Shown one piece after another: positions 1,422 through 55,754 of a DNA stretch of 64,000 nucleotides. Each line of letters starts with the position of its first letter. Position 1 is the first letter of the stretch. The notes under the pieces were generated by a model that was not told the origin of the DNA, did no database searches, and worked only from the letters and a program-made list of their open reading frames with translations. A program made the position numbers and the translations under genes. Source of the DNA: an uncultured Planctomycetota bacterium (lineage in GTDB: Bacteria; Planctomycetota; PLA2; JAEUHO01); contig CAVVXN010000005.1 in the NCBI GenBank assembly GCA_963752285.1, forward strand, positions 1,088,001 through 1,152,000, written 5' to 3'.

Positions 1422-1800
1422 GCCATGTGTGCGGCACTGGGCGCTTCACATGCGGGCCCTCGCGTTCCTTGCGGGGGGCTGGCTAGCTTGCCTCTGAAGG
1501 TCCCCCCGTGTCCTGCAGTTGCGACGGCCTCTGCTCATTGTCCCCGGCCCACCGAAGGATCGCGTCCGGGAGGTGATTCGGGCCCCCATTCGCGACTGGC
1601 TGTTTACCAACAGGGCCCTCTCCCCGGGACCGAGAGTTCGAGAGGGTGGCGTAGAGTCCGTGCGTTCAACGCCGGGGCGGGCCGTCGTCGCGCCACGACG
1701 CGCACATCCCGTGAGCCCCGAAGTTCTGGCCCCTGCGGGCGCCGCTCCGGCGCGGCCCCCTCGCGATGCTCTCCGGCCTCTCGCCGGCCATACGGCGAAG

Positions 1801-1852
1801 GTGGCTCCCCGAGCAGGGCTCGAACCTGCGACCTACGGAGTTAACAGTCCGC
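1801..1852 (-). repeat. Distal att site: duplicated 3' part of tRNA-Asn
   Basis: gtggctccccgagcagggctcgaacctgcgacctacgga(g)ttaacagtccgc matches 11626-11676 except for one extra G at 1840. Confidence 0.95.
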
Positions 1853-3120
1853 AGGGAAACCGCAATTTCCTAGCCTTCCCGTCGGGCGGGATTTGCCCCC
1901 CGGCGTGACTTTTTTCGCACGAATTCGTGCTCGTCGCGCCAGCCCGCGGAAGAAGCGGCCTCACGAGTCCCCCAGGCGAGGGCGAGCAAGCCCCAGCCCG
2001 CCCGCGGATCCGCGGTTCGAACGAAACGGCCACCACTGGCCAGCGAGGCCACTGGGCAAGCGGACCGGCCTGTCGCTCCGCGCCGATCCCATAGATTCGC
2101 AGCCAAGCCGACCATACCCAAGGGAGCCAGCCGGCCGCCCACAGCGCAAGCACGGATAGCCCCGCGAGGGACGCCCCGCGACGCCCGCAACGATGTTTGG
2201 TCCCCGCTCGACCATCTTGCTGTCCTCGCGCTCGACCCTCGCTAGACCCACGCTAGGCTGGGCTCCGGAAGGATGCCAGCCTCCCCACCCGGCGGGTCCC
2301 CTGCTCGTCCCGGGGCGCGGGAGCAGGCCATGAACGCCCCTTCCGGGGCTCGACGCGCCCGGAGGACCCGAGAGTCGTCCCGCCCCTCGAAAGCCCCTGG
2401 ACGGCCTACCCCTGCACGCGCACGGAGGCGCCGGGCAGCGGCGGTCGATGGGACTCCGACGGTGGAGCGGTCCATGCACCCCCGGGCCGCACGCCGCGGT
2501 AGGCACTTCTATTGGCTGGACCACGGCGACGGTTGCCGCCATCTTGAACCATGTCAACTTCAAGAGGCCGGGTGGTAAGTCAGAGGCGGTCGAGCATCAG
2601 GGGCTTCCTGTTCGGGGCGTCTTCTGCGGCGTCATGGCCTGCCTTCCCGCTGTCCTGAGTGCCCTCGTCCTCGAAAGCATCGACTCGATTCCGGTCCAAG
2701 GATACAGGGGGTACATCGTCGGCTTCATCGCTGGCGCATCCCTCTGGGGGGGCTGTACAAGGCATGGCAAGCTCGGACCGGGGGCGAGTCCACCACGTAG
2801 TCCTCCCACCACCCGGCGTCCGCCGGAGTCGGAATGGGGCCCACGACGCATCGTTGGCGGCGGACAGGCTTCCCCGTGTCGGGCACGCCGGTTCCGCGGC
2901 GTGGACGGCTCGGCACCCTCGGAGGGCCCTGTACCCCACCCTCCCGTCTCCGGGCAGCGAGGAGGCCCGCCCACGCACGAAGCCCCGGGCCGACAGCACT
3001 CGGGGCGTCGAAGCGCGCGACGGCTCCGTCCTTCCATGGGGCCTTCCCGGGACTTCCGGCGCGATCGGGCAAGCGGTCGGGGACCTCCCCCAGCGGGCAT
3101 CACACATCGGGTCCGCCCTA

Positions 3121-3610
3121 CTACTTCTCACGCCGCGGCGCACGACTCTTTGCCGCCGGCTTGCCAGGACGAACGACGAGCGCCGGGATGGCGTACGGTG
3201 GATACCCCATACGCCCTGACACGCTCCAGACCAACTCGCGCAGAAAGGGCCATGCCGTGTACAGGCCATTCAGGAGTAGGAACTCCCTCACGTCCGTCTC
3301 GGGTATCTCGACCTCGGTCGGTCGGGTGTACGAGACCCTGAACTGCGCTCGGACAGTAAACAAGCGTCGGTCGGGGCTACCCCCGCCTGCCGACACGGCG
3401 AGTGTCACAAGGGCGGACGCGGATCCGGTCCTCCATATCTCCGGCACGACGCGGTCTCGCGTGGTGATGCGGAAGTCATCGCCCTGGGCCTCGCCGGGGC
3501 GTCGGAATTGGCGACATCCGAGGCTGACGAGTTCGATTTCGCTGAGTCGTCATCGCGGGGGCCACGCGACCGGCCGCCGCAAGTCTCTTGGGAGGTACGA
3601 GTCGGAGCAT
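3121..3610 (-). pseudogene. SecB-like chaperone of a TAC system (frameshift near 5' end; real or sequencing indel)
   Basis: 'FTVRAQFRVSY..VREFLLLNGLYTAWPFLRELVWSVSGRMGYPPYAIPAL' is the SecB-like signature. In-frame upstream 'RLSEIELVSL'. ATG at 3610 lies 4 nt after the upstream stop. Confidence 0.8.
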
Positions 3611-3614
3611 TGGT

Positions 3615-4020
3615 CTAGTCACGGGCTACAAGTTCGTATTCCAGACGGGGGGTGGGAGGTACGGCCCCCCGGACAGGGCCGTACTCCTCGGTGACCACCG
3701 CCCCGCACATCGTCTCCTCCCCCGGCCGGACCGGAGTCGCTGGAGAACGCGTACGGCTGAGCCGTGGTCATGATGGCCTGCGGCTGGAGCGCCCAGCGGA
3801 AGCCGCAACCGAGACCGAAGAAGCGCGATCGTCTTCAGCGTCATGTTCGCCGAGCCGTGGAGAATCTGGCTCACACGAGCCTCGCTGAGTCCGACACGAC
3901 GCGCAGAGAGGCCTGCGTGACCTCGTTCGCATCCATGGCCGTGAAGACCCACCCGGCCGCCGTGGCGGCCAAGCGCTCCCTCTCGGCGAGGACATCGTAC
4001 GGGTCGACGCGCTGAGTCAT
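3615..4020 (-). pseudogene. XRE/HigA-like HTH antitoxin with C-terminal extension (several frameshifts)
   Basis: AGGAAGGAG SD then ATG 4020. Joining frames gives 'AMDANEVTQASL/RRVGLSEARVSQILHGSANMTLKTIA', an XRE HTH. Lies between toxin and SecB-like genes. Confidence 0.75.
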
Positions 4021-4063
4021 GCGTTGAGTCTCCTTCCTGAGTTTAGTGTCGTCGCCCTTCTTC

Positions 4064-4516
4064 TCATGAACGGTGGAGGGTACTTACGTACTCTTGGGCA
4101 ACCTCGCGCGCCTGGGCCTTGTCCCTTCCAGGCGTTTCGTCCTGAGGCGGCTTGTCGAAGGCGTGCGCGAGCAGCATCGTATTCTGACTGGAAGAGTCGT
4201 CGCCGACTCGGGTAGGGATGCGACAGCGGAAGCCGAGCACCCGTCGGCCCATGTTTGCGCCCACCCGGTACTCGCACATTCCGTCGATCGCGTCGTTGCC
4301 CTTGAAGGGCTTGAACTGCTCGCGGGTAAGTGTCCCTTCGCCGTCAACGGCGGTCTTTACCAGCAGACCGAGGAGCCTCCGTTGCTCTCGGATGGGCCAA
4401 GTCTTGATGGTCTGAAGGGCGGGCATGGTTCCGTCGCGGAGCTTGGCGAAAACGACACGTCGGCCTCGGGGCCCTTGCCCCTCGAAGGCTACGGGAGTTC
4501 GGGCCCAGAGGTTCAC
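4064..4516 (-). CDS. RelE/ParE-superfamily (HigB/Gp49-like) toxin
   Basis: 'FKPFKGNDAIDGMCEYRVG..GRRVLGF..MLLAHAFDKPPQDETP..DKAQARE' fits the Gp49/HigB pattern. Toxin-first order ahead of the HTH gene. Confidence 0.8.
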   Translation of the reverse strand: MNLWARTPVAFEGQGPRGRRVVFAKLRDGTMPALQTIKTWPIREQRRLLGLLVKTAVDGEGTLTREQFKPFKGNDAIDGMCEYRVGANMGRRVLGFRCRIPTRVGDDSSSQNTMLLAHAFDKPPQDETPGRDKAQAREVAQEYVSTLHRS

Positions 4517-4524
4517 GTAAACCT
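4509..4524. promoter_or_regulatory. Imperfect palindrome over toxin start codon, putative antitoxin operator
   Basis: AGGTTcACGTaAACCT. TAGGTT/TAAGGT -10-like hexamers lie just upstream on the minus strand. Confidence 0.5.
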
Positions 4525-4780
4525 TAACCTACCCGGGAAGCCTCGCTACCCAAAGCGCTCAGCCTCCACCTGCCCAAGCCTAACTTCAGCCCCCCCGGCC
4601 CCATGGTCCCAGCCTCCTGGGCCGGGCCCGTCTGTGGCGCCCCTAGGGCCGCAGGTGCCCCCCTACCGGAGTCCTCACGGGCGCCCCCCCGTGGACCTCG
4701 TCCCCTGGGGGTAGGCTCCCTCGCCCGTTCCCGGCCTCGCTGGCGTCGGGGTTGGTCGAGGGCCCAGGACGAAGCGGTCG

Positions 4781-5350
4781 ATGCCAGGGCGGGCGACTCG
4801 GACGTGGAAGGCGCGCCGTACGATGCCCCGCATGGGCACGATCCCTGAGGCAGCGCCGTGGAATAGTCGGGGCGTGGCACGCCACGGCCCGGAGGAGGCG
4901 ATCCGGCGCGTGATCGAGGGGATCACCAACGGCCAATCCCTGCGAACCATCTGCCAAGATCGGAGGATGCCATCCGCATCGACCATCTTCGAGTGGTTGG
5001 CATCGGACGAACGCCTGTCGGATCAGTACGCGCGCGCGAGGGAGTCGTCGGGTCTGCTCGTGGGCGAGGAGATCGAGGAGATAGCCCGGCAGGTGCTCCG
5101 CGGAGAGATCGACGCGAATGCCGCCCGGGTCGCCCTCGACGCCCTCAAGTGGACGGCCGCAAGGAAGGCGCCGCGGGTCTACGGGGAGAGCCTGAAGCTC
5201 ACGGGTCAGGTCGAGGTCGGCGCCCTCGTGGCCTTCGTGGACATGAACCGCGCCGACGACGAGGACGCCGCGACGGGCACGCTCACGACCCCTCACACCC
5301 TCCCGCCCGAGGGGTCGCCGGCCGCCGAGGCGTTGCCCGAGACCGCGTAG
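4781..5350 (+). CDS. terS: Terminase small subunit (Sf6 gp1-like); true start probably 4832-4874
   Basis: 'GQSLRTICQDRRMPSASTIFEWL..QYARARE..EEIEEIA..AARVALDALKWTAARKAPRVYG' is the characteristic pac-type TerS pattern. Confidence 0.85.
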   Translation: MPGRATRTWKARRTMPRMGTIPEAAPWNSRGVARHGPEEAIRRVIEGITNGQSLRTICQDRRMPSASTIFEWLASDERLSDQYARARESSGLLVGEEIEEIARQVLRGEIDANAARVALDALKWTAARKAPRVYGESLKLTGQVEVGALVAFVDMNRADDEDAATGTLTTPHTLPPEGSPAAEALPETA

Positions 5351-5776
5351 CTCCGGGGCCGTCCGTGAGCGCTCGCTCACGCGCGGGCGCTCCGGGTCGT
5401 ACGGGCTCGGTCCTCGGTGTCGAGGCGGACGAGAACGTCGTCCTCGAGCCACGCGGGCCGGCGGGTGAGGAGGCGCCGGGACGTGCGCGGGCCGAACCTG
5501 GCTTCGAGCGCGGCGAGCCGGCCTCCGGGTTCGTCCCGCACCTCACGTCCCTGACAAGCTCGGCCGTCTCGAACCGCATGACGTAGATCGGACAGTCCGT
5601 CGTGGTCCGGGAGAGGAGTGTGTCCACGCGGAGGAGCGTACCCCGGGGCCCGTACGATCGGGACCCGACGGGCCCCCGCTCGGGACTGATCCCCCGGGCG
5701 CGAGCCGACCCCGCACCGTCCACGGCCGGGGCCCGCCACCTTTCGTCGCGTGGCGGTGCGGAGAGGACGGTGCGAC

Positions 5777-6552
5777 ATGGCGACGACGAAGGACAAGCGC
5801 GAGCGCGCGCGCGAGACGAAGGACGACTCGCCGCCGTCGGGATGGCCCGCGGCGTGGTGCGAGCGGGCGCCCGCTTCGCCCTCGTCGGCCGAGTGGGAGG
5901 CCGCCTGCGCCGCTTGGGCCAAGCGCGCCGGGCTTCCGCCCGACGAGCCCGCGGGGGGCGTGGAGTGGGCTCGGACGAACCTCCGCCGGCTTATCGACCT
6001 GGAGAGGACCGCGACTCGGATGCGCTCCGAGGCGATACGTCGGGGGCGCTTCTCCGAGCTGAGCGACGCCGCGCACCCCTGGCGCGACGTCATGCGCGAG
6101 GCGGCGATGCAACGTCACGTCCTCGCGGATGCCGCGGCCGAGCTGGCGGAGGAGCTGGACGACCAAGACCGCGCTCCGATCCGCCTCCTCGGCCAATGTC
6201 TGAGCGAATTCCCCTACGTAGGCGACGGGTCGGTCGCCGACGTGCTTCCCCCGACTTCGACGCGCGCCTCGCCGCCGTGCGGGACCGGCTGGCTCCTCCG
6301 CCCGATGCCGCCGCGGGTCCGCCCGAGCCGGACGCGACTCGCCGCCTCGGGCCGAAGTCGCGCCTGGCGCTGACGACGAGAGAGGCCGAGGTGCTGGACC
6401 ACGTATGTCGGTGGATGGCCGAACACAACGACGTGCCGCCGACCTACGACAACCCCCCCGACAACATGGCCCGGAAGACCTACTCGACCGCGCTGAAGGG
6501 ATTGGAGAACAAGCGGCGCATCCGACGCAGAAGCGGGGCTCAGGGCGGGTGA
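5777..6552 (+). pseudogene. Putative regulator with C-terminal LexA-like winged HTH (one frameshift near 6250)
   Basis: ATG 5777 with GAGG SD. After the shift, 'LTTREAEVLDHVCRWMAEHNDVPPTY..TYSTALKGLENKRRIRR' resembles the LexA DNA-binding domain. No peptidase domain. Confidence 0.5.
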
Positions 6553-6574
6553 TCGTCGAGGTAGCGCCGCTCGG

Positions 6575-6610
6575 GGACTGACTCGTGGACTGACTCGTGG
6601 ACTGACTCGC
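6575..6610. repeat. Three tandem 12-bp direct repeats upstream of the AlpA/Xis-like gene
   Basis: GGACTGACTCGT, GGACTGACTCGT, GGACTGACTCGC at 6575, 6587, 6599. Confidence 0.9.
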
Positions 6611-6648
6611 TACTGCGGTGGAGGCCGGCGCGCGCGATCCTCGCGTGC

Positions 6649-6852
6649 ATGAGCACTCCCACCCTCCTCTCGACCCGCGAGGCTCGGCGAGTCCTCGGGC
6701 TGCCGCGCGACTCGGACGCGCTCGCGATCCTCCGCGCCCACGGGATCCCGCACGTCACGGCCCGCGGCGCCCACCTGTGGGACCGCGCCGCCGTCGAGGC
6801 GCTCGCCCGTGACCTCGCCGACCGCCGCGCCGATGCGGAGACGCGGCCGTGA
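6649..6852 (+). CDS. AlpA/excisionase-like HTH protein
   Basis: 67 aa, 'LLSTREARRVLGL..GIPHVTARGAHLWDRAAVEA' (MerR/HTH_17-like). First gene of an overlapping replication operon. Confidence 0.65.
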   Translation: MSTPTLLSTREARRVLGLPRDSDALAILRAHGIPHVTARGAHLWDRAAVEALARDLADRRADAETRP

Positions 6853-7091
6853 GTCGCCCCCGCTTCCGCGAGCCGCTCTCCCCTGCCGCTCAAGAGCGCC
6901 TCGACAAGTTCTCCTCGTTCGTCGCGCGGCTCCGCGACCTTGCCTCGAAGGGGCCCGGTGTCGCCGCGGCCGACGAAGCTCGCGCGCTCCTCGCGGCGCT
7001 CGCCGCTGTCGTAGACGTTGCCTGCCGCGACGCCCGCGACGCTCGCCGGCTGAACGTCGCGACGCGGCCCGACCGCGAGGGGCGGCCGTGA
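6849..7091 (+). CDS. Hypothetical protein
   Basis: 80-aa helical ORF with GTGA overlaps to both neighbours. Confidence 0.55.
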   Translation: MSRPRFREPLSPAAQERLDKFSSFVARLRDLASKGPGVAAADEARALLAALAAVVDVACRDARDARRLNVATRPDREGRP

Positions 7092-8906
7092 GCGCGCCGG
7101 CCGAGATCGAACGGGTCCCGCCGAGCGATACCGAAGCTGAGATGATGTTGCTCGGCGCCCTGCTCCTCGAGCCCGACCGCGGGGGCGAGCTGATCGACGC
7201 GGTGACACGCGCCGGGCTCCAAGCCGCAGACTTCTACCGGCGTGCCCACATCCTCGTCTTCGCTGCGCTGCTCCGGCTCCGCGATGCCGGCCTGCCGTTC
7301 GACACGATCCTCCTCCGCGGCGAGCTGGCGCGGTCTGGGGCCCTGGACGACGCGGGCGGAGCGGCGTACCTCTGCGAGATCGCGCGGAGCGTCTACACGC
7401 CGGCCCTGGCAGTCGACCACGCGCGCCTCGTCGTCGAGAAGGCGCGGAAACGGCGGATGCTCGATGCGGCCCGGCTCGCGGCCGAGGGCCTGTGGGATGG
7501 GCAGGACGTCGATACGGTGCGGGTGCGGCTTATGGAGGCGCTGGAGCGCGACGGCAAGACCGCGTCGTCCTACTCGGACCTGTTCGTCTCCGTCGCGGAG
7601 CTGATCGACCCGAACGCGCCGACCGTCGTCCCGTTCGTCCCCGACTTCAGTTGGCCCGGCAAGATCACGTTGACGATCGGACGTGAGAAGGCCGGGAAGT
7701 CGACCTTCCTCTACGCCAAGATCGGCGCGATGGAGCGGGGTGGGGTATTCCTCGGCCGCGCGTGCCGGCAGACGCGAGCCGTCATCTTGAGCGAGGAGCC
7801 CCGCGCGATCATCGACGAGAGGTGCCGACGATTCGGGGTCCGCGAGGCGGTCGTTCTGCCCCGGGACCGTGTCCACAAGATCCCGACGTGGGGGGAGAAG
7901 GTGCGGGCGGCCGTGGAGGCGGCGGAGAAGCACGGATGCCGCTACGTGCTCGTAGACCCTGTGTCGAAGCTCGCGGGCCTCGGCCCGAAGGACGAGAACG
8001 ACAGCGGCACCGTGAGCGCCCTGTACGCGGTGGTCGAGGCCGAGATGGGCGACCTCTCGTTCGAGCTGAACCACCATGCCGCGCGAGACGGCGGGCGGAG
8101 CGGGATCGACTCGTCTCGCGGCACGACCGCGTGGACGCAGAACCCCGACACGATCGTCACGCTTTCCAAGCCCAAGGCCCGCTCGAACGTCCGACGGATC
8201 GAGTGGGACGGCCGGGAGATGCAGTACCCAGACCCGGCGGCTGTCGAGCTGCTCCGCGACCATGCGACGGGGCTCGACGCCTATCGGCTCGTGAGCCGCC
8301 CCGACGACTCCGCGAGCGAGGACCTCCGCCGGGTTTCGACCCTCCATGATTCGGTTGTCGCGGAGATCGAGGCAGAGTGGTCGGAGCTGCCCGGCCCCGA
8401 GGCGGAGAAGGTGTGGATCCCAACGGGCCGGATCGTCCACCGAGTCGGGACCGCCGCAGGGCCCATCCGCGGGGCCCTTCCGGTCCTCGGTCCGGCTCGG
8501 CCGACTCCGCCGGAAGCCGGCCGGCGTGGGGTACGTCTACGCCCCCGCCATAGCGCCCGGGGCGCGCGAACCTGCCCCGACCTGTCGCGGACCTGTCGTG
8601 GGCGACCTGTCGGACCTGTCGGACCTGTCGGAGCCCTGTCGTTCGCCTGTCGCGGACTCCAGCCCGACACCTGTCGCGTCTGTCGGGGGGGACCGTAGGG
8701 TCCCCCGACGACAGGAAGTCGGGGCCCCCGCGGCGACAGGATCGGGCGGCAGCCTACCTGCTGCACTCCGGGCCACCGGCGGGACGCTCCTCGACCTCCA
8801 CGCGATCAAGCCCGAAGCGCCTACCCCCGACGATCCCCGCGACCGCCCCGAGGACTGCCTTCGTCCCGACGGGTCGCAGCGTGACCCGCGGAAGGGGGCG
8901 TCGTGA
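7088..8906 (+). CDS. DnaB N-terminal domain + AAA_25/RepA-like helicase (probable frameshift near 8480; otherwise ends 8698)
   Basis: 'PPSDTEAEMMLLGALLL..DFYRRAH..GGAAYL..HARLVVEKARKR' is DnaB_N. Walker A 'GREKAGKS', 'LSEE', Walker B 'YVLVDP', 'DEND', 'NHH', 'SRGT'. Confidence 0.85.
8581..8740. repeat. Iteron-like array, putative replication origin
   Basis: CCTGTCG at 8581, 8592, 8606, 8615, 8624, 8635, 8646, 8670 and TCTGTCG at 8679. Hairpin at 8682-8709. Inverted copies CGACAGG at 8709 and 8734. Confidence 0.75.
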
Positions 8907-8982
8907 CCCGGCGCCGCCCTTCCCCCGCGCCTGGCTGGCGACCCCCGTCGCGGCGGTCGTGAGCAATCAAGGGAGATTCAAG

Positions 8983-9321
8983 ATGGCGAACGGACACGGC
9001 GGTAGGCGCCAGGGCGCGGGCCGGCGTCTCGGCTCGAAGGACCGCGCGACACGGGAGGCGAAGGCGACTCTCTCGGAGCTGGCGCGCGAGCATTCCGACG
9101 AGGCGATTCGGACCCTTCACGACGTCATGGTCAAGGGCGAGAGCGAGTCGGCCCGGATTGCCGCGGCCGGGGCCCTCCTCGACCGCGGGTACGGCCGTCC
9201 TTCGCAGGCCGTGGAGCACGCGGCCGGCGACGCCGCGCTCCCGATCATCCTCAACTTCCGGCATCTCGTGAATCTCCCGAACGACGAGCCCGACGACGAC
9301 GAGGAGGCTGTCGGCGCGTGA
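8983..9321 (+). CDS. Phage protein of the GGxRxGAGR...LLDRGYG family (TerS-like)
   Basis: GGGAGA SD. 'GHGGRRQGAGRRLGSKDRAT..LAREHSDEAIRTL..ARIAAAGALLDRGYGRPSQ', a pattern I associate with genes in the terS position. Confidence 0.6.
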   Translation: MANGHGGRRQGAGRRLGSKDRATREAKATLSELAREHSDEAIRTLHDVMVKGESESARIAAAGALLDRGYGRPSQAVEHAAGDAALPIILNFRHLVNLPNDEPDDDEEAVGA

Positions 9322-9525
9322 CCCCTGGCGCCCGTCTCCCTTCCGAGCGTCGCACGCTTCGCGTCCGCGAGGTTGCGAAGTCCCTCGGCGTGTCGGAGAA
9401 GGCGGTACGGACGTGGTGCGCGACCGGCGACCTCCAGGCCGTGCGGGTTGGGCCCCGCCTGCTCCTGATCGAACCGAAGGCGCTGGAGCGATTCCTCGAT
9501 CGTCACCGGGGCGCCGGTCCGGTAG
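9318..9525 (+). CDS. Excisionase-like HTH_17 protein (3' end uncertain; TAG at 9523-9525 is out of frame by one base)
   Basis: 'TLRVREVAKSLGVSEKAVRTWCATGDLQAVRVGPRLLLIEPKALERFL'. Confidence 0.75.
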
Positions 9526-9528
9526 GGG

Positions 9529-9558
9529 TTGACACATGGAATACTCCCGTCATACACT
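9529..9558 (+). promoter_or_regulatory. sigma70-type promoter for RHH-integrase operon (leaderless)
   Basis: TTGACA (9529), 18 nt spacer, TACACT (9553). ATG follows 6 nt later. Confidence 0.7.
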
Positions 9559-9564
9559 CCCACC

Positions 9565-9792
9565 ATGCAGCCCCGAAACCCCGACCTGACCATGCTGGCG
9601 ACCCGGCTTCCCGCGACCCTCGTCCGTGCGATCCAAGCGCGGGCGAAGCGGGAGAAGCGGACCGTGACGGACGTGGTGCGGACGGCCATCGCCGCGGGGC
9701 TTCCCGAGGCCCGGTCCGTCGAGGCCGAGGTCCGGGCGCTCCGCCGCGAGGTCGAGGCGCTCCGCCGCGCGATCGAAGGGAGGAAGCCGTGA
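9565..9792 (+). CDS. Ribbon-helix-helix (CopG-like) DNA-binding protein with C-terminal coiled coil
   Basis: 'MLATRLPATLVRAIQARAKREKRTVTDVVRTAI' followed by heptads 'VEAEVRALRREVEALRRAIE'. Confidence 0.65.
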   Translation: MQPRNPDLTMLATRLPATLVRAIQARAKREKRTVTDVVRTAIAAGLPEARSVEAEVRALRREVEALRRAIEGRKP

Positions 9793-10985
9793 AGGCTGTA
9801 CCGCCGAGGCCGGAAAGGCCCGTTTCAGGCGCAATCGTTCTTCGTGGGCGGGATCCGCTACCGCCTTTCGACCGGATGCACGTCCCGGGACGCCGCACGC
9901 CGCAAGGTCGAAGGCATGATCCGCGAGGCCGAGGCCGCGCACGCGGCGGGCGTCGTCTGGAATCGGCCGAAGGCGAAGGAAACCGCGTCCCTCCTCGACG
10001 AGTACGGGGTCGCAAGTCCTTCAGCCAGCACGGACGCACGACCGCGCACGTCGAGCAAACCCTCCACCGGCTCGGCCGCGGACTGGAGGGCGCTCCACGC
10101 CTCGGCGCCGTCAACGCCGACTTCCTCTCCCGCGCGCTCGCCCGGATCGCGGATACCCCGGTCGCGCGGCTCGGACGCGAGCCGGCGGTCCCTTCTCCCT
10201 CGGACCGTGGACGCGTACTGGGTCGCGATCGTCGGGTTCTGCCGTTGGCTCCAGCGGCGCGGCATCCGGGCCGACAACCCCGCGACGCGACTGGAGAAGG
10301 CCGGACGCACGGAGAAGGTCCTCCGTCGTCGCGCCCTCGCGGACGACGAGCTACGCCGACTGTTCGCGGTCGCGCGCTCCCGTCCGTTCGACCTCGCCCG
10401 GGAGGCGCGCGTCCACGCGGGCGTCACACCCGAGGAGGAAGCTTCGGCTCCTCGACGGTGGGCCGCCGCCACGCGCTGGCGTACGTCCTCGCGGGACGGA
10501 TGGGCCTTCGGCGGAACGAGGTCGCCTCGCTCCGGTGGGCGGACGTGAACCTCGACGCGCGCACGCTCACGGTCCGGGCGAAGGTCGCGAAGAACCGACG
10601 CGAGTCCGTCCTCCCATTCTCGACGGCGGACGCCTTCGACGCGTTGCACGAGGCCGGTGGAGACGTTCTCCCGACCGCGAGCGTGGTCGGATCCCTCCCG
10701 ACCGTGCGAACGCTCCAAGCGGACCTAGGCCGGGATCGAGGTCGAGACCGAGGAGGGGCGGGTGGACTTCCACGCTCTCCGGCACACCTGCGCGACGATC
10801 CTCGCGCGGGCCGGCGTGCCCCTCAACTCCTCGGCGACTTCATGCGCCATGCGTCCTACGCGACCACCCGCGCGTACTACCAGCACCTTCGTCTCGCGGA
10901 CCTCCGCGGGGTGGCCGAGGCGGCTGGTGGACAGGCACCCGCAAGCGCCTCTGGGAATGCGCGCTCGGTGGGCACGGGCGTCTAG
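9789..10985 (+). pseudogene. int: Tyrosine recombinase/integrase, split across frames by multiple 1-bp indels
   Basis: Fragments 'YRLSTGCTSRDAARR', 'FCRWL..DNP..RRRALADDELRRL', 'GLRRNEVASLRW..AKNRR', 'DFHALRHT', 'MRHASYATTRAYY' together give the R-K-H-R-H-Y catalytic set. Confidence 0.9.
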
Positions 10986-11047
10986 GTTTGGCGTTGACAA
11001 GGCGGGCCGACGCGGGGAAACCCTATGGCCTCAAGGGAGGCGGCGAA

Positions 11048-11449
11048 TGCGGTACGTCCTGCTCGTGGTCGGGGGATTGGCGCTTGCGTGTGGCGCCGCA
11101 ACGAGAGCCTCGGGGTCGGACGAGCAGGGGGCGGCACTCGCCGATCGAGTCGCGTCCCTGGAATCACGGCTGGCGATCGAGAAGCTTCCGTTGCGACTAC
11201 TTGGACGCCGAATGCGCGGCGATCGAGGCAACGGTCTACGCGCCACGAAACGTCTCTCCTCCGCTACACCTACTTCATCGACTGGTTCACCAAGCCCACG
11301 GAAACCGTGCGAAGCGCTTGGGAGCGGGTGTCGAGGACCATCCCTTCCGCGAAGGCGTCAAGGACGAGGCGGCGGCGGCGGCGGCACGTCGAAAGGCGTA
11401 CGAGGCCAAGGCCACCTGGGAGAAGGCATCGAAGGCTCCCGGACGGTGA
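11048..11449 (+). pseudogene. Small secreted hypothetical protein (frameshifted)
   Basis: GGAGG SD, signal-peptide-like 'MRYVLLVVGGLALACGAATRA' and coiled coil. Plausible continuation in other frames to stop 11449. Confidence 0.4.
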
Positions 11450-11626
11450 GGCGTGGTCCGGCCCACGCCGCAGGCGGGGCCTCGGGGACTGTGCCCCCTG
11501 GTGTGCCCAAAGTTGCACCAAACGAGGGCACACCTGGGGTCCAAAGGGCACTCGGGGGCGCGCAGAGTCTCGCGCGGCTATCGCCGGCAAGCCCCCATTT
11601 CTCGCGGGTTTCCGGGCGTCTGAGAG

Positions 11627-11702
11627 TGGCTCCCCGAGCAGGGCTCGAACCTGCGACCTACGGATTAACAGTCCGCCGCTCTACCAGCTGAGCTATCGGG
11701 GA
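11627..11702 (-). tRNA. tRNA-Asn (GTT)
   Basis: Reverse complement TCCCCGATAGCTCAGCTGGTAGAGCGGCGGACTGTTAATCCGTAGGTCGCAGGTTCGAGCCCTGCTCGGGGAGCCA folds as a cloverleaf with encoded CCA. Confidence 0.97.
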
Positions 11703-11998
11703 GTGCCGTTCGGCTTCGGGCGGAAGATACCACCTGGGGTCGTCCGCGCTTCTTCGCGAGGGGGAGGATGGTAGCTCCGGTTCGGCGTGCCGCAAGCACC
11801 TGCCCCGAGCGGGGTTACGCCGGTCGCGGGGACCCTCCGGACGCCGCGCACGCCGTCCCGGCGGGTCTCGGCGGCCGACCGGTGGTCGCGGGTGGCCGCC
11901 GACTTCGTGCCGGGGCCGGGGGCGCGAGGTCGCCGGAGCGCGCCTCCCGGGAGCGTCGGCGGGGCGTGCGATCGTCGGGGATCCTCTGGGAGTTGCTG

Positions 11999-12358
11999 GT
12001 GCGGGCTGGACACATCGAGGTCTTCGTTCGCGACGTGACCGTGGCGCGCGCGTTCTACGCGTCGGTGCTCGGCTTCGAGGTGTTCGACGTCCAGGGCGAC
12101 GGCGCCTTCGTCTGGCTCCGCCTCGGCGAGCGCGAGATCCTGCTCCGTCCAGGCGCGCCCCCACCGCCCGCCGCGCGCTACCGTGACGCTGCCGTCGGCT
12201 TCGTCCTGTTCACCGACGACCTCACGAAGACCTGCCGCGAGCTCGAAGGGCGCGGCCTCGTCTTTTGCGGAGACGACGGACCCGACTGCCCGACGTTCAC
12301 CGATCCCGACGGCCACTGGTTCCAGCTCGTCGATCCGCGGCAGCACGGGGGCGGCTGA
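11999..12358 (+). CDS. VOC/glyoxalase family protein
   Basis: 'HIEVFVRDVTVARAFYASVLGF..FTDPDGHWFQL'. Confidence 0.85.
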   Translation: MRAGHIEVFVRDVTVARAFYASVLGFEVFDVQGDGAFVWLRLGEREILLRPGAPPPPAARYRDAAVGFVLFTDDLTKTCRELEGRGLVFCGDDGPDCPTFTDPDGHWFQLVDPRQHGGG

Positions 12359-17024: not shown

Positions 17025-18047
17025 TCAGCGTGTAGCGGCCGCGGGCACGCCGACCGCGAGGCGCTCGAGGAGGTCCGCGCACCGCGAGGAGTAGCCCCAC
17101 TCGTTGTCGTACCACGCGCAGACCTTGGCGAAGGTCCCCATCGAGAGGGTGAGGCCCGCGTCGAAGATCGACGAATGCGGGTCGTGCTGGATGTCGGTCG
17201 AGACGAGCGGGTCCTCGGTGTACCGGAGGATTCCGCGGAGCGGCCCCTCGGCCGCCTTCTTCATCGCGCCGTTCAGCTGCTCGATCGTCGCCTCCCGCTC
17301 GAGCTCCACGGTCAGGTCCACGATGCTCCCCGTCGCCACGGGCACCCGGACGGCGAACCCGTCCAGCTTGCCGTGGAGCGCGGGGATCACCTTCCCCACC
17401 GCGCGGGCCGCGCCCGTCGTGGTCGGGATGATGTTGATCGCCGCGCTCCGCGCCCGGCGGAGGTCCTTGTGGGGCAGGTCGAGGATCCGCTGGTCGTTCG
17501 TGTACGCGTGGATCGTGTTCATGAGGCCGCGCACGATTCCGAACGACTCGTGGACGACCTTCGCCACCGGGGCGAGGCAGTTCGTCGTGCAGGAGGCGTT
17601 GCTCACGAGCCGGTGCTCGGGCCGGAGCGTGTCGCCGTTCACGCCGAGCACGACGAGCGCGTCGAGCTCGTCCTTCGGCGGGACCGTCAGCAGCACCTTG
17701 GAGGCGCCGGCCCGGAGGTGCGCCTCGAGCTGCGCCCGCTTCCGGAACACGCCCGTGGACTCGAGCACCAGGGGCTGATCGTGGTCCTTCCACGGGAGGC
17801 GCCCGGGGTCCGTCTCGGTCCACATCGGGATCCGCCAGTCCCCCACCACGAGGTCCGACCCGTCCGTCGAGACGTCGGCGTCGAAGATGCGCTGCGTGCT
17901 GTCGTACTTGAGGAGGTGCGCCATGGTCTTCGCGTCGCCGAGGTCGTTGACGCCGACCACCTGGAACCTGTCGCGGCGCTCGTAGAGGATGCGGAAGACC
18001 ATCCGGCCGATGCGGCCGAACCCGTTGATGCCGACGGGAATCGTCAT
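17025..18047 (-). CDS. gap: Type I glyceraldehyde-3-phosphate dehydrogenase
   Basis: 'GINGFGRIGR', 'SNASCTTNCLAP', 'WYDNEWGYS'. ATG 18047 with GGAGG SD. Confidence 0.98.
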   Translation of the reverse strand: MTIPVGINGFGRIGRMVFRILYERRDRFQVVGVNDLGDAKTMAHLLKYDSTQRIFDADVSTDGSDLVVGDWRIPMWTETDPGRLPWKDHDQPLVLESTGVFRKRAQLEAHLRAGASKVLLTVPPKDELDALVVLGVNGDTLRPEHRLVSNASCTTNCLAPVAKVVHESFGIVRGLMNTIHAYTNDQRILDLPHKDLRRARSAAINIIPTTTGAARAVGKVIPALHGKLDGFAVRVPVATGSIVDLTVELEREATIEQLNGAMKKAAEGPLRGILRYTEDPLVSTDIQHDPHSSIFDAGLTLSMGTFAKVCAWYDNEWGYSSRCADLLERLAVGVPAAATR

Positions 18048-18149
18048 GGTGCGTGCCTCCGCCGGCCCCCGACCGGGGTCGGCCCTGTCGTACGATCGTA
18101 GGGAGAGGATACCGGCGCTCCGCCGGCCCCCGGAGAGGACCCCGGGCCG

Positions 18150-19649
18150 ATGGCTTTTGACCCCCTCGTCGGCGAGGTCGTGCGCCGGGCGCTCGACGAA
18201 GGCGTCGCCCGGCCGGGCGACCGCGTCGTCGTCGCCGTGTCGGGCGGCGCCGACTCGACGGCGCTCGCGGTCCTGCTCGACGAGGCGCGGTACGCGGGAC
18301 TCCCGCTCGACCTGGTCCTCGCGCACGTCGATCACGGATGGCGCGGCGCCGCCGCCGCGTGCGCGGACCTCGAGGTCGTTCGCACGCTGGCGTCGAGACT
18401 CGCCGTCCCGCTCGAGGTGCGGCGGCTCGATCCGCTTCCGCCGGGCGCGCGCGGGAACGAGGCCGCGGCCCGCCGCGGTCGCTACCACGCGCTCGCCGAC
18501 GTCGCGCTCGCGCGGCGCGCCTCGCACGTGGCCACCGCGCACCACCGGCGCGACCAGGCCGAGACGGTCCTCGTCCGCCTCGGCCGTCGGAGCGGGATCC
18601 TCGGCCGGCGGGGGATCCTCCCCGCGCGTCCCCTCGCCCCCGCGCGGGACCCCGAGGCCTGCGGGACCCTCGCGCGGTCCACGCCGACGCTGGTCCGTCC
18701 TCTGCTCGGCGTGGACCCGCGACGCCTCCGCGCGTACCTCTCGGCGCGGGGCCTCTCCTGGCGCGAGGACCCGTCGAACGACGATCCCCGCTACGAGCGC
18801 GTGCGCGCACGACGCGTGATCCTCGCGCGCGGCGACGCCTACGAGGCGCGCCTCGTAGACGTCGCCCTCCGTGCGCGGGCGCGCTTCGACGAGACGGTGG
18901 CGCGGATCGGGCGCGTGGTCGGCCGGCCCGAGCCCGCGCCCGAGACCGGGCCCGACTTGGCCTTGCGCGCGGTCCGCGTCCCGATCGACAGGCTCCTCTC
19001 CCTTCCGCCCCGCGACCTCCCCGTGGCCCTCGCGCTGCTCGGCCGGCCGCTGGCCGCCGACCGGGACGGCCCGTGGCTCACGCGCCGCCACGTGGCCCTC
19101 GCGCGGCGCGTCCTCGGGGAGGGTGGCGCGATCGACCTCCCCCGCGGGCTCCGGATCCGCGCTGCGGCGGGATGGTTCGTCCTCTCGCGTCGCGACGGGC
19201 CCGCGCGGTCCACGCCGCCCCCGGCCGCCGCGCCGCCGGACCCCGCCGTGCCGGCGCTTCGCCGCGTGGACCTCGACCGCGGCCGTCTCGACCTCGCGGC
19301 CCTACGTCGCGCGAGCGACCCGCGGCGCGCGGCACTCGACCGGGACGTGATCGGCGACACGCCCGAGGTGCGCTCCGTCCTACCCACGGACCGCTTCCGC
19401 CCCCTCGGTGGGCCCCAACGGGAGCCGGTGCGGGTCCTCGTCTGGCTGAAGAAGCAGGGGATCCCTCGCTCGGCGCGCGCGGCGTCGGCGGTGCTCGTCG
19501 GCGTACGTGGGGTCGCGTGGGTGGTCGGCCGGCGGGTGGACCGGGACCACGCGGTCGGGGCCGTGACACGGCGCGTGTCGATCTACGAGGTCGCCCGGTG
19601 TGGGGCCTCGGACGCCGTCCGGGTGTCGGGCGAACCTTCGGCGGTGTGA
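18150..19649 (+). CDS. tilS: tRNA(Ile)-lysidine synthase
   Basis: 'VAVSGGADS', 'HVDHGWR', 'TAHHRRDQAETVL', 'RPLL', 'EDPSN'. Confidence 0.92.
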   Translation: MAFDPLVGEVVRRALDEGVARPGDRVVVAVSGGADSTALAVLLDEARYAGLPLDLVLAHVDHGWRGAAAACADLEVVRTLASRLAVPLEVRRLDPLPPGARGNEAAARRGRYHALADVALARRASHVATAHHRRDQAETVLVRLGRRSGILGRRGILPARPLAPARDPEACGTLARSTPTLVRPLLGVDPRRLRAYLSARGLSWREDPSNDDPRYERVRARRVILARGDAYEARLVDVALRARARFDETVARIGRVVGRPEPAPETGPDLALRAVRVPIDRLLSLPPRDLPVALALLGRPLAADRDGPWLTRRHVALARRVLGEGGAIDLPRGLRIRAAAGWFVLSRRDGPARSTPPPAAAPPDPAVPALRRVDLDRGRLDLAALRRASDPRRAALDRDVIGDTPEVRSVLPTDRFRPLGGPQREPVRVLVWLKKQGIPRSARAASAVLVGVRGVAWVVGRRVDRDHAVGAVTRRVSIYEVARCGASDAVRVSGEPSAV

Positions 19650-54951: not shown

Positions 54952-55028
54952 GGGCGTTTAGCTCAGTTGGCTAGAGCACCAGCTCGACAAGCTGGGGGTC
55001 ACTGGTTCGAGTCCAGTAACGCCCACCA
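54952..55028 (+). tRNA. tRNA-Val (GAC)
   Basis: GGGCGTT acceptor stem pairs with AACGCCC-A-CCA. Anticodon arm CCAGC-TCGACAA-GCTGG. T-loop TTCGAGT. Confidence 0.95.
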
Positions 55029-55754
55029 CTTCTTCGGTCGGAGCTCCCAGGTCGCGCGCTTCGTCGCCCGTCGATCGGTCTTCGTCGGACTCGAACCCGC
55101 GACCCCCACGGGGTCGATCATCCTGGGGGGCCGAGCCCCCCAGACCCCCACCGGTTCGAGTCCAGTAACGCCCACCACTTCTTCGGTCGGAGCTCCCAGG
55201 TCGCGCGCTTCGTCGCCCGTCGATCGGTCTTCGTCGGACTCGAACCCGCGACCCCCACGGGGTCGATCATCCTGGGGGGCCGAGCCCTTGAGACCCCCAC
55301 CGGTTCGAGTCCAGGAACGCCCACCACTTCTTCGGTCGGAGCTCCCAGGTCGCGCGCTTCGTCGCTCGTCGATCGGTCTTCGTCGGACTCGAACCCGCGA
55401 CCCCCACGGGGTCGATCATCCTGGGGGGCCGAGCCCTTGAGACCCCCACCGGTTCGAGTCCAGGAACGCCCACCACTTCTTCGGTCGGAGCTCCCAGGTC
55501 GCGCGCTTCGTCGCCCGTCGATCGGTCTTCGTCGGACTCGAACCCGCGACCCCCACGGGGTCGATCATCCTGGGGGGCCGAGCCCTCGAGACCCCCACCG
55601 GTTCGAGTCCAGGAACGCCCACCACTTCTTCGGTCGGAGCTCTCAGGTCGCGCGCTTCGTCGCCCGTCGATCGGTCTTCGTCGGACGCGAACCCGCGACC
55701 CCCAGGGGGTCGATCATCCTGGGGGGCCGAGCCCTTGAGACCCCCACCGGTTCG
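55004..55754 (+). repeat. Five tandem 149-bp units each starting with the 3' 25 nt of tRNA-Val
   Basis: GGTTCGAGTCCAG(T/G)AACGCCCACCA at 55004, 55153, 55302, 55451, 55600. Partial GGTTCG at 55749. Confidence 0.97.

Follow-up and report, generated by a model that had tools for sequence, protein, structure and literature searches.

PICI satellites are described (PMC10085698) as sharing a core of five components, namely an integrase, an AlpA-type regulator, a primase or replicase, a capsid-morphogenesis gene and a small terminase (TerS); that description, with its SatelliteFinder models, also accepts 'Type B' PICIs, SaPIs included, that have four of the five. VEIMEs, in the account given in PMC9618062, share a tyrosine integrase, AlpA, an excisionase and a primase/helicase, and some of them (module 6) carry a TerS that resembles the TerS of co-occurring phages most closely. 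Here we describe an island within a 64,000-nucleotide stretch of DNA from an uncultured Planctomycetota bacterium (the window, meaning this whole stretch). Reading the island as a satellite is reasonable because its gene set has the functions by which PICI-like or VEIME-like satellites with a TerS are defined. The best explanation, to which we give about an even chance, is a decayed singleton PICI-like satellite that was inserted at the 3' end of tRNA-Asn and decayed in place; such an element would belong to a known general kind, with packaging redirected by TerS and the capsid not remodelled.

The borders of the island are clear. A 39-nt perfect direct repeat (1801-1839 and 11626-11664) is far beyond chance, and when extended across a 1-nt indel the pair is identical in 51 of 52 columns (1801-1852 against 11626-11676). 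The repeats correspond to the 3' part of tRNA-Asn(GTT) and bracket 9,786 bp, in agreement with the preliminary description of a ~9.8 kb element between tRNA-derived direct repeats. The intact tRNA-Asn(GTT) lies on the minus strand at 11627-11702 (Rfam tRNA, 71.5 bits; also found by ARAGORN), with the proximal att repeat as its 3' part (11626-11676, minus strand, within 11626..11702). The distal att repeat (1801..1852) is a displaced copy of that 3' part, comprising 39 perfect nucleotides, a 1-nt insertion and 12 further identical positions; it is no more than a fragment of the tRNA, Rfam does not detect a tRNA at this place, and the 'tRNA-???' that ARAGORN reports at 1802-1892 is an artefact of this fragment. 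Inside the distal repeat, some 1.3 kb (1853..3120) holds no recognisable gene, has a low coding signal and a low codon score, and its ORFs have zero matches in Pfam, PHROGs, NCBIfam and PADLOC; it may be decayed or unassigned cargo. At the other end, a cargo ORF had been proposed between the integrase and the tRNA, but the 640 bp concerned (10986..11625) contain no ORF supported by Pfam, PHROGs or NCBIfam scans and are probably the att arm region.

Both of the TerS-like genes proposed earlier are confirmed. TerS-1 (4823..5350, plus strand) is an intact Sf6-type small terminase of 175 aa (PF20901, 9.9e-27; phrog_1482, 2e-31) that aligns over its full length with homologues at 56-58% identity and matches 147 phage records (best 43% identity). 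TerS-2 (8983..9321, plus strand) is a small protein of the DUF5681/phrog_15261 type (phrog_15261, 2e-15), a family that sits at the TerS position in phages; 11 of 30 matches in an Atlas search belong to the DUF5681 set. It matches four distinct phages at E<=0.01 (tblastn E-values 4e-4 to 6e-3), and its homologues in phiAX1 and PBR31 are directly upstream of TerL and portal, while that in a third phage, pYD21-A, is annotated in its RefSeq copy as 'terminase small subunit'. TerS-2 is a putative TerS, assigned from where it lies in two phages and from a single database annotation. Both TerS families are common to the island and P22/Sf6-like phages.

The neighbours of these genes raise an alternative, in which the island is a deletion remnant of a temperate phage that keeps a lambda-like xis-int-att end, early/replication genes and terS, and has lost everything from terL through the tail and lysis genes. 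The gene after TerS is TerL in all five comparator (pro)phage loci with an identifiable next gene (L001, L002, L003, L006 and L007, the last assigned from the record annotation), whereas this is so for neither of the two island genes. TerS-1 has no TerL downstream, and the scar of a deletion could sit in the 427-bp gap without coding signal that follows it (5351-5776). The preliminary description had taken homologues confined to full-length prophages, or a lack of similar-sized elements with conserved synteny, as signs against a satellite. On the first point, every TerS-1 or TerS-2 relative with an identifiable downstream gene adjoins TerL in a (pro)phage, and a genome scan by TerS returned five distant loci, of which three are clear prophages, one is at a contig edge and one has a TerS fragment followed by a 675-aa ORF without a family match. 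On the second, no syntenic relative of similar size was found in a shallow search consisting of this one TerS-based scan, and blastn of the island DNA against phage and plasmid collections gave no match.

Several observations argue against a remnant, which we consider unlikely. Two unrelated, separate TerS genes without TerL would require two clean deletions or a composite origin, and the island carries a single pair of att repeats. As stated in the preliminary description, no capsid, portal, TerL, tail, lysis or conjugation gene could be recognised, nor a primase, when 78 ORFs were compared with Pfam, 68 with PHROGs and 68 with NCBIfam. No fragment of TerL or portal is detectable either: tblastn with five TerL and four portal proteins gave a best island match of E=0.2, while TerS positive controls in the same search gave 1e-8 to 1e-24. 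Against the satellite reading, however, no capsid-size or helper-interference gene was recognised in the island.

The replication helicase (7088..8698, plus strand) combines DnaB_N with a RepA-like AAA_25 ATPase (PF00772, 1.6e-20; PF13481, 5.3e-10), and its core is intact, with the family-invariant residues present. In a full HMMER search, 3318 relatives reached E<=1e-10, the best with 35% identity, and every alignment was one continuous stretch over approximately residues 5-400; the final ~60 codons overlie a repeat array and are probably not truly coding. This array, directly 3' of the helicase core at 8581..8740, is a candidate origin with eight direct and two inverted copies of CCTGTCG, such that 10 of the 18 copies in the whole window are packed into 160 bp (TRF rows at 8579-8657). 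A second array, of 3.3 tandem copies of the 12-mer CTCGTGGACTGA (6570..6609, plus strand; TRF score 73, 96% matches), separates the wHTH gene from the alpA-like gene and probably represents operator or iteron sites. The DnaB_N-AAA helicase reported at the outset is upheld, as are repeat arrays, of which there are two.

The helicase has no match among 50,697 phage records, which argues further against a phage remnant and could favour another possibility, namely an integrative replicon other than a satellite (a plasmid-like or mobilisable island) whose TerS-like proteins are DNA-binding regulators or anti-phage packaging decoys. The size of the helicase family is consistent with this, as are its few matches in the collections, which are partial and on plasmids, and its N-terminal domain, which resembles island-type DnaB (NF040583, 2.5e-17, partial). 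TerS proteins are small HTH DNA binders, and packaging of the island is something that we infer. Nevertheless, TerS-1 matches a bona fide family of phage TerS proteins strongly and over its full length, Pfam, PHROGs and NCBIfam reveal no relaxase, coupling protein, oriT-type or FtsK-like transfer gene, and PADLOC detects no known defence system, so we regard such a replicon as improbable.

The plus-strand genes alpA, orf80, helicase, TerS-2, xis, RHH and int form an operon tied by four GTGA start/stop overlaps. Upstream of it, an ORF from 5777 to ~6290 is followed in another frame by a winged-helix-like C-terminal part (~6300-6552; the whole at 5777..6552, plus strand, from translations and GC3 phase, which changes near 6300); these are either two overlapping genes or one frameshifted gene. 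A match to phrog_3502, a family of unknown function, covers 6196-6552 at 5e-5; the wHTH part was otherwise judged by eye, and an Atlas search gave no lead. The AlpA/Xis-like HTH_17 protein is encoded by an intact 67-aa ORF (6649..6852, plus strand; DUF4224, 0.012; HTH_17, 0.035; phrog_66, 0.037) that overlaps the next gene via GTGA at 6849-6852; this gene, an 80-aa ORF (6849..7091, plus strand), is translationally coupled on both sides and has no family match in Pfam or PHROGs. TerS-2 is joined by a GTGA overlap to xis (9318..9530, plus strand), an HTH_17 excisionase (PF12728, 6.3e-10; TIGR01764, 1.2e-6, at cut-off). TerS-2 thus belongs to a replication-excision operon rather than to the late-operon position of a phage, which is difficult to reconcile with a remnant. 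Because the xis ORF has its first in-frame stop only at 10985, a lesion at its 3' end is likely. A sigma-70-like promoter match (9529..9558, plus strand; TTGACA, an 18-nt spacer and TACACT) lies just upstream of the RHH start codon and is the sole promoter-like site in 1500-12000 (shuffled mean 0.4). The ribbon-helix-helix (Arc/CopG-like) protein (9565..9792, plus strand; RHH_1, 0.013; FitA-like RHH, 0.0067; phrog_6506 Arc-like repressor, 3e-4) has a stop codon that overlaps the GTG start of the integrase. Among the regulators first proposed, Xis is therefore firm, and the AlpA-like, RHH and wHTH proteins are weakly supported. No Stl-like or convincing divergent repressor was recognised in the island. 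The layout noted initially holds: the integrase follows the replication genes in the same orientation, a primase domain is absent and no convincing divergent repressor is seen. In phage lambda, xis lies upstream of int and both point toward att; the island shares this phage-like arrangement, a point in favour of a remnant.

Three co-oriented minus-strand genes precede TerS-1 and end in a SecB-like chaperone, with an XRE-type HTH gene in the middle, an order that recalls toxin-antitoxin-chaperone (TAC) systems with a SecB-like chaperone, for example HigB1-HigA1-Rv1957 of M. tuberculosis. The likeness is limited by the quality of the matches. The TAC-type chaperone (3121..3549, minus strand) has as its best PDB match the SecB-like chaperone Rv1957 (5mtw_C, E=0.005), together with phrog_16879 (7e-8) and NF004392 SecB (0.0012, a score far below the model cut-off); its frame is open, and its N-terminus appears to be lost because there is a stop directly upstream and no start codon before 3447. 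The antitoxin-like gene (3553..4020, minus strand; HTH_3, E=0.036; phrog_1373, 0.006) is frame-disrupted: HTH_3 lies in the frame of ORF 3626-4042, while the ATG at 4020 opens the different frame of the N-terminal part, which stops at ~3871 (switches read by eye). The putative toxin (4064..4516, minus strand) is placed by position alone, without a match in Pfam, PHROGs, PADLOC or PDB; its AF2 model has a pLDDT of 50 and the fold search was uninformative. Of the TA-chaperone module proposed earlier, the SecB-like and HTH parts thus stand weakly and the toxin is putative.

The tyrosine integrase (9789..10985, plus strand) had been described as one gene; it is instead a pseudogene, with colinear domain segments that alternate between two frames. 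Positions 226-284 of the phrog_1 profile map to frame 1 (nt 10198-10380), 288-343 to frame 0 (10467-10622) and 392-413 to frame 1 again (10759-10824); likewise, for PF00589, positions 23-81 fall in frame 0 and 120-148 in frame 1, and an intact phage integrase used as tblastn query is divided between the two frames in the same way. Stops interrupt frame 1 at 10546 and 10726, the His-x-x-Arg and Arg-I boxes are in different frames, and no single frame holds a complete integrase. Two of the switches are backed by profile or tblastn; the others (start, N-terminal domain and Tyr box) were read by eye, and PDB sequence searches gave them no support. Signs of damage are also seen in the antitoxin, at the start of the chaperone gene and at the xis stop. 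As no complete integrase frame remains, the present copy is most likely immobile, and with the other genes appearing decayed it is unlikely to be a working satellite. Visible decay is also what a phage remnant would show.

In principle, consensus errors in this part of the assembly could account for the frame disruptions, for example from low or mixed coverage over a variable island, in which case int, xis and the TAC genes would belong to an intact, working satellite. In favour of this, the disruptions all lie within the island, the att repeats remain identical at 39 of 39 positions, open frames with conserved residues are kept by TerS-1, the helicase core, TerS-2, AlpA and RHH, and the contig is 2.35 Mb long, which we take to suggest a long-read assembly. 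However, no domain is split across frames among the 40 scanned ORFs of the ~52 kb host flank, where ORFs cover 88% of 11.7-64 kb and 37 of the 40 match Pfam, many near the whole model. No long homopolymer occurs in the switch windows (10380-10467 and 10643-10759), errors would have to be extremely frequent locally to give at least seven lesions in less than 10 kb, and the left att copy also bears a 1-nt indel relative to the tRNA copy. We therefore regard an intact, working satellite as improbable. The satellite-like gene content proposed at the outset is real: within ~10 kb at a tRNA site there are two TerS-type genes, a replication helicase next to an origin-like array, Xis/AlpA and an integrase, and virion, lysis and conjugation genes are absent.

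For the intact ancestor of such a decayed satellite, we infer the following cycle. The plus-strand operon, with alpA, orf80 and the helicase followed by TerS-2 and xis and then by RHH and int, would be switched on either by a helper phage or by a signal to the RHH, wHTH or AlpA regulators. Xis and Int would excise the element at the 51-nt tRNA-derived repeats, and the DnaB_N/AAA_25 helicase, probably also the initiator through a C-terminal DNA-binding end, would fire the CCTGTCG array just 3' of its own gene. TerS-1 (Sf6-type) and TerS-2 (DUF5681-type) could then pair with the helper TerL, allowing its headful motor to fill helper capsids with island DNA, and the element would re-integrate at tRNA-Asn in the next cell. 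The SecB-type toxin-antitoxin-chaperone module may have served as stabilising or abortive cargo.

Compared with temperate phages and prophage remnants, the island differs in that genes for TerL, portal, capsid, tail and lysis are missing, as are remnants of them, and in the embedding of TerS-2 among replication and excision genes. With SaPI-type PICIs, as described in PMC10085698, it shares a size of ~10 kb, site-specific integration, flanking direct repeats, an integrase, an AlpA/Xis-type HTH protein, a replication protein with an adjacent repeat-type origin and its own TerS; it is also without tail, holin and portal genes and, like Type B, without a capsid-morphogenesis gene. In PICIs so described, the integrase is at the opposite end, by a divergent repressor pair, whereas here it is at the far end of the replication operon, co-oriented and reading toward att. 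The island also differs in its DnaB_N and AAA_25 helicase without a primase domain, its two unrelated TerS-type genes, the absence of a recognised Stl-like repressor and its integrase pseudogene. PICMIs, in the account of PMC10803314, are likewise minimal satellites that carry int, an AlpA-type excision factor and a replication gene and lack any gene for capsid remodelling, but they are without terS, need a DUF3987/DUF5906 primase and integrate beside fis, whereas the island carries TerS-type genes, two of them, lacks a primase and sits at a tRNA. Marine VEIMEs are defined by packaged concatemers in particles (PMC9618062), while the island is known here from its genes; compared by description, both are small integrative elements with an integrase, AlpA, an excisionase and a helicase or primase/helicase, and the island shares a TerS with some VEIMEs. 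A new satellite type is accordingly not demonstrated, since in terms of function the island corresponds to the published PICI core minus the capsid-morphogenesis gene, and it resembles TerS-bearing VEIMEs.

The borders of the island are those of an element inserted into a tRNA gene. A tRNA-Asn(GTT) gene lies on the minus strand at 11627-11702 (ARAGORN; Rfam tRNA score 71.5 bits), and its 3' part recurs 9,825 bp to the left as a stretch of 39 nt with 0 mismatches (1801-1839 and 11626-11664). Beyond these 39 nt the left copy has a 1-nt insertion followed by 12 further identical nt, giving 51 identical positions over 52 columns. A duplicated tRNA 3' end is the classical mark left by site-specific insertion at that end of the gene, and the island coordinates proposed in the preliminary description (1801-11676) match the ARAGORN tRNA-Asn and the 51/52 direct repeat exactly. 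The Rfam scan matched only the tRNA, with no further RNA family, and gave no tRNA at the left copy; a 91-nt 'tRNA-???' called there by ARAGORN (1802-1892) was rejected as a tRNA, being assembled on the repeat fragment and negative in Rfam. The repeats enclose 9,786 bp of DNA with a G+C content of 70.6%, versus 72.8% in the host DNA to the right. On the left, the gene at 3-1421 (the flank continues over 1422-1800) encodes a DUF2950 protein (2.5e-5); this flank has 62-68% G+C and a weak third-position signal, both below those of the right-hand host genes, and this left-hand DNA may be of foreign origin too.

The island occupies ~10 kb at a tRNA site and carries its own helicase and repeat array, Xis/AlpA-type genes with an integrase, and two TerS genes with no TerL or virion genes. 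For these reasons we favor the reading that its intact ancestor would have been a PICI-like satellite that redirected packaging via TerS, with unusual wiring, and that the present copy would be immobile through decay of its integrase; judged from the sequence, we hold this with roughly even confidence. Neither Pfam (78 ORFs), PHROGs (68 ORFs) nor NCBIfam detected a TerL, portal, capsid, tail, holin/endolysin or relaxase/coupling protein in the island, and no capsid-morphogenesis or packaging-interference gene was recognized with the same three collections. Remnants of TerL or portal genes were sought by running five TerL and four portal proteins of the comparator loci in tblastn, and the best value in the island was E = 0.2; TerS positive controls in the same search reached 1e-8 to 1e-24. 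An AICE-type or other conjugative element was rejected, as there is no FtsK-like, relaxase or coupling gene. The island DNA from 4700 to 11626 had no blastn match among phages or plasmids, and one TerS-seeded scan of species-representative genomes found no syntenic relative.

TerS-1 (4823-5350) is an intact 175-aa small terminase of the Sf6 type (PF20901, 9.9e-27; phrog_1482, 2e-31) whose alignment with homologues (56-58% identity) spans the full length. It matches 147 records of the phage collection, all below 60% identity and the best at 43%. When an alignment of TerS-1 (A3) was used to scan species-representative genomes, five distant loci were returned, three of them (L001, L002 and L003) clear prophages. 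The gene right after TerS encodes TerL in all five comparators in which it could be identified, namely these prophages and the phages phiAX1 (L006) and PBR31 (L007); of the remaining two genome-scan loci, one has a contig edge after TerS and the other a 675-aa ORF without a family match. Locus L004, an 8,021-bp contig (BFAS01000156.1), carries a primase gene with RepB-primase, PriCT_2 and DUF3987 domains, then a small ORF and, where the contig stops, an Sf6-type TerS. The order is satellite-like or that of a small phage.

TerS-2 (8983-9321) is a 112-aa protein of phrog_15261 (2e-15). A tblastn search of 50,697 phage records with this protein returned four distinct phages at E<=0.01. The Acetobacter phage phiAX1 homologue, a DUF5681 protein, is followed immediately by genes for a Terminase_6N protein and a P22-type portal, in Xanthomonas phage PBR31 an annotated large terminase and portal lie directly downstream of the homologue, and the RefSeq copy of Vibrio phage pYD21-A labels it 'terminase small subunit'. 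The DUF5681 set also holds 11 of the 30 clusters nearest to TerS-2 in the Atlas, a language-model search. Because of these gene positions, this annotation and these neighbors, a TerS-like label is reasonable as a positional rather than a biochemical call. A single-sequence AlphaFold model of TerS-2 had low confidence (pLDDT 59) and gave 0 matches in a PDB fold search at E<=0.001. In the literature searched, DUF5681 appears only as a virion-proteome entry, and no statement makes DUF5681 proteins small terminases. With both TerS families found next to TerL in phages, the island could be a plain prophage remnant. This is less parsimonious, since two TerL-side deletions would be needed, and it leaves the GTGA-fused TerS-2-xis pair unexplained; we consider it unlikely.

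The couplings in question are GTGA start/stop overlaps, found at 6849, 7088, 9318 and 9789, which join alpA, orf80 and the helicase gene, TerS-2 and xis, and the RHH gene and int. The first of these groups begins with an AlpA-like HTH_17/DUF4224 protein (6649-6852; weak matches, HTH_17 at 0.035), followed by orf80, an 80-aa ORF to which no function is assigned (6849-7091), and by a helicase with DnaB N-terminal and AAA_25 ATPase domains (7088-8698). The helicase ORF continues ~60 codons past the end of its relatives, through an array of the motif CCTGTCG (8581-8740) with eight direct and two inverted copies, which account for 10 of the 18 matches in the whole 64-kb window. A full HMMER search returned 23,816 helicase relatives at E<=1e-3, 3,318 at E<=1e-10 and 19 at E<=1e-30, the nearest at 35% identity; the word-index homologue search returned only the protein itself and partial DnaB matches. 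The helicase had no match in the phage collection and three partial matches among plasmids. No primase domain was found in the island with Pfam, PHROGs or NCBIfam. That a tract of this kind belonged to an integrative replicon other than a satellite strikes us as rather improbable.

Under the favored satellite reading, regulation and excision would fall to the small DNA-binding proteins on either side of the replication genes. An HTH_17 excisionase (PF12728, 6.3e-10) is encoded by the xis ORF starting at 9318, and a ribbon-helix-helix protein (9565-9792; weak matches) is preceded directly by a sigma-70-like promoter match, the sole one in the region. Upstream of alpA lies an ORF without an assigned function whose winged-helix-like C-terminal part is in another frame (5777-6552); an Atlas search with the part at 5777-6292 gave no lead (best score 0.77). 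It is followed by 3.3 copies of a 12-mer (6570-6609). The segment 11478-11497, ~130 bp from the tRNA-proximal att repeat, has an 11-nt match, CTCGGGGACTG, to the first 12-mer copy (6570). This may be coincidence, because at two mismatches the motif occurs in the whole window at chance level (8 observed, 7.6 expected).

The left part of the island differs in composition. No gene was recognized at 1853-3120 with Pfam, PHROGs, NCBIfam or PADLOC, and three ORFs follow in the same orientation on the minus strand (3121-4516), resembling a toxin-antitoxin-chaperone (TAC) module. The last is SecB-like (phrog_16879, 7e-8), and its top match among solved structures (E=0.005) is Rv1957, which serves as chaperone in the TAC system of M. 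tuberculosis. For the middle ORF there is a weak match to an XRE-type HTH (E=0.036), and the first, the presumed toxin, had zero matches in Pfam, PHROGs, PADLOC and a PDB sequence search; its single-sequence AlphaFold model was of low confidence (pLDDT 50), with 0 matches in a PDB fold search at E<=0.001. The N-terminus and HTH of the antitoxin-like gene lie in different frames, and the SecB-like ORF has a stop immediately upstream and no start codon before 3447. Third-position G+C is 0.74-0.75 in these genes, compared with 0.84-0.91 in the island genes at 4823-9792 and 0.93-0.98 in host genes, which suggests that the TAC-like module may have a separate, more recent or more decayed origin. PADLOC detected no known defence system.

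The integrase homology at 9789-10985, that of a tyrosine recombinase, is split over two frames with no complete ORF. Along the phrog_1 profile, positions 226-284 fall in frame 1 (nt 10198-10380), positions 288-343 in frame 0 (10467-10622) and positions 392-413 in frame 1 again (10759-10824), and PF00589 is divided likewise, with positions 23-81 in frame 0 and positions 120-148, which include the His-x-x-Arg box, in frame 1. As the word-index search gave no close intact integrase, the distant intact tyrosine integrase of phage ThulaThula was used as a tblastn query, and its residues 209-282 matched frame 0 (E=5e-9) and residues 334-353 frame 1 (E=0.004). Frame 1 is interrupted by two stop codons (10546 and 10726); no stop occurs in frame 0 between 9006 and 10985, but this frame lacks the His-x-x-Arg box. 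The 398-aa gene of the source annotation is this frame-0 ORF and was the sole word-index match to the integrase piece. Tyrosine recombinases have as catalytic boxes Arg-I, His-x-x-Arg and a C-terminal Tyr, and the island integrase does not hold all of them in one frame. Additional switches, recognized by eye only, would sit immediately past the GTG start codon (9789), within the N-terminal domain and ahead of the Tyr box; neither presumed piece, N-terminal or Tyr-box, matched an integrase in a PDB sequence search. The xis ORF runs across 1.6 kb with no in-frame stop. Programmed frameshifting in int was rejected, since the frame alternates at least twice and probably four to six times. Downstream of the integrase, no supported ORF was found at 10986-11625, where the preliminary description had placed a final cargo gene.

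The host DNA on the right bears on how these disruptions are to be read. At ~70% G+C the window yields many spurious frames in raw ORF lists, and coding regions were therefore judged by third-position G+C and by a codon model built from the window's long ORFs. Between 11.7 and 64 kb, 88% of the sequence is taken up by strongly scoring ORFs, and of the 40 ORFs scanned there with Pfam, 37 had matches, many over nearly the full model (Hsp70, 1-599/599; T2SS-E, 3-370/370; Ppx/GppA), and none had domains split between frames. Real mutational decay would thus be the simplest reading of the island's frame disruptions, because 52 kb of neighboring host genes are clean. An intact satellite whose disruptions are assembly errors seems to us improbable; neither of the two best-defined switch windows, at 10380-10467 and 10643-10759, has a long homopolymer in it. 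No prophage was found elsewhere in the 64-kb window.

The host genes include a type II secretion system, BamB, sigma-54 activators and an FHA-Ser/Thr kinase, and the host is therefore a diderm; seven of the eight housekeeping proteins looked up represent clusters of just 1-2 members. Two further observations concern this region. In the 687-aa ORF at 17025-19091 (minus strand), GAPDH domains occur only at residues 351-660 and the first 350 codons overlap a plus-strand ORF (18150-19649), so the true GAPDH start is probably much further inside. A tandem array at 55000-55754 (5.1 copies of a 149-bp unit, 98% matches) adjoins tRNA-Val(GAC) (54952-55028) and begins within its 3' end; every unit opens with the T-arm and acceptor end of this tRNA and also has a stretch that looks like the 3' half of a tRNA on the minus strand. 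The array might consist of stacked att-like sites, or it might be an integration scar that was duplicated.

If the satellite reading holds, TerS-based phage parasitism reaches a bacterial lineage of which hardly any relatives have been sequenced, and the usual parts are wired differently within 10 kb: the replicon has only a helicase, the xis-int end is lambda-like, and two TerS families occur together. A bolder version, to which we assign a low probability, would make the island a member of an undescribed TerS-only satellite lineage in a poorly sampled high-GC diderm, in which two unrelated TerS proteins, one of them tied through translational coupling to the replication-excision operon, hijack the headful motors of two helper-phage types and an integrase-less copy is kept as a fixed anti-phage locus, since the intact TerS and helicase would interfere with packaging. 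On the satellite reading the island would agree with what has been published, namely that many undescribed satellite families are to be expected, and a specialist would not be surprised by it. Its practical value is limited: there is one copy, apparently dead, its host is uncultured and no helper is known; it offers a lead for mining metagenomes and viromes rather than a testable system.

Compared with known satellites, the island comes closest to the PICIs, whose core is given in PMC10085698 as an integrase, AlpA, a replicase and TerS, with or without a capsid-morphogenesis gene. The island has an AlpA-type regulator or excision factor (HTH_17 at 9318 and, weakly, at 6649-6852) and a small terminase, TerS-1, plus a second TerS-position protein, and no gene for the tail, holin, portal or head-tail connectors, which PICIs lack too, was detected in it with Pfam or PHROGs. 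Its candidate counterpart of the primase/replicase is the DnaB_N and AAA_25 helicase with an adjacent repeat array, in which Pfam and PHROGs gave no primase domain, and its integrase is the tyrosine-recombinase homologue split over two frames. No capsid-morphogenesis or packaging-interference gene was recognized; according to the same paper, the former is missing from accepted Type B PICIs as well, such as SaPIs. PICMIs are described in PMC10803314 as having no terS and requiring co-located int, alpA and a DUF3987/DUF5906 primase, whereas no DUF3987, DUF5906 or other primase domain was found in the island with Pfam or PHROGs. The markers that PMC10085698 lists for P4-like satellites (psu-delta-sid and the alpha primase) and cfPICIs (capsid, portal, head-tail adaptors and TerL) were likewise not found with Pfam, PHROGs and NCBIfam. 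The gene set of the island is also the core of some VEIMEs, as described in PMC9618062. The preliminary description had claimed a new type of phage satellite; by this comparison the element is of a functionally known kind, and what is new is at most its layout, its helicase-only replicon and its pair of unrelated TerS genes.
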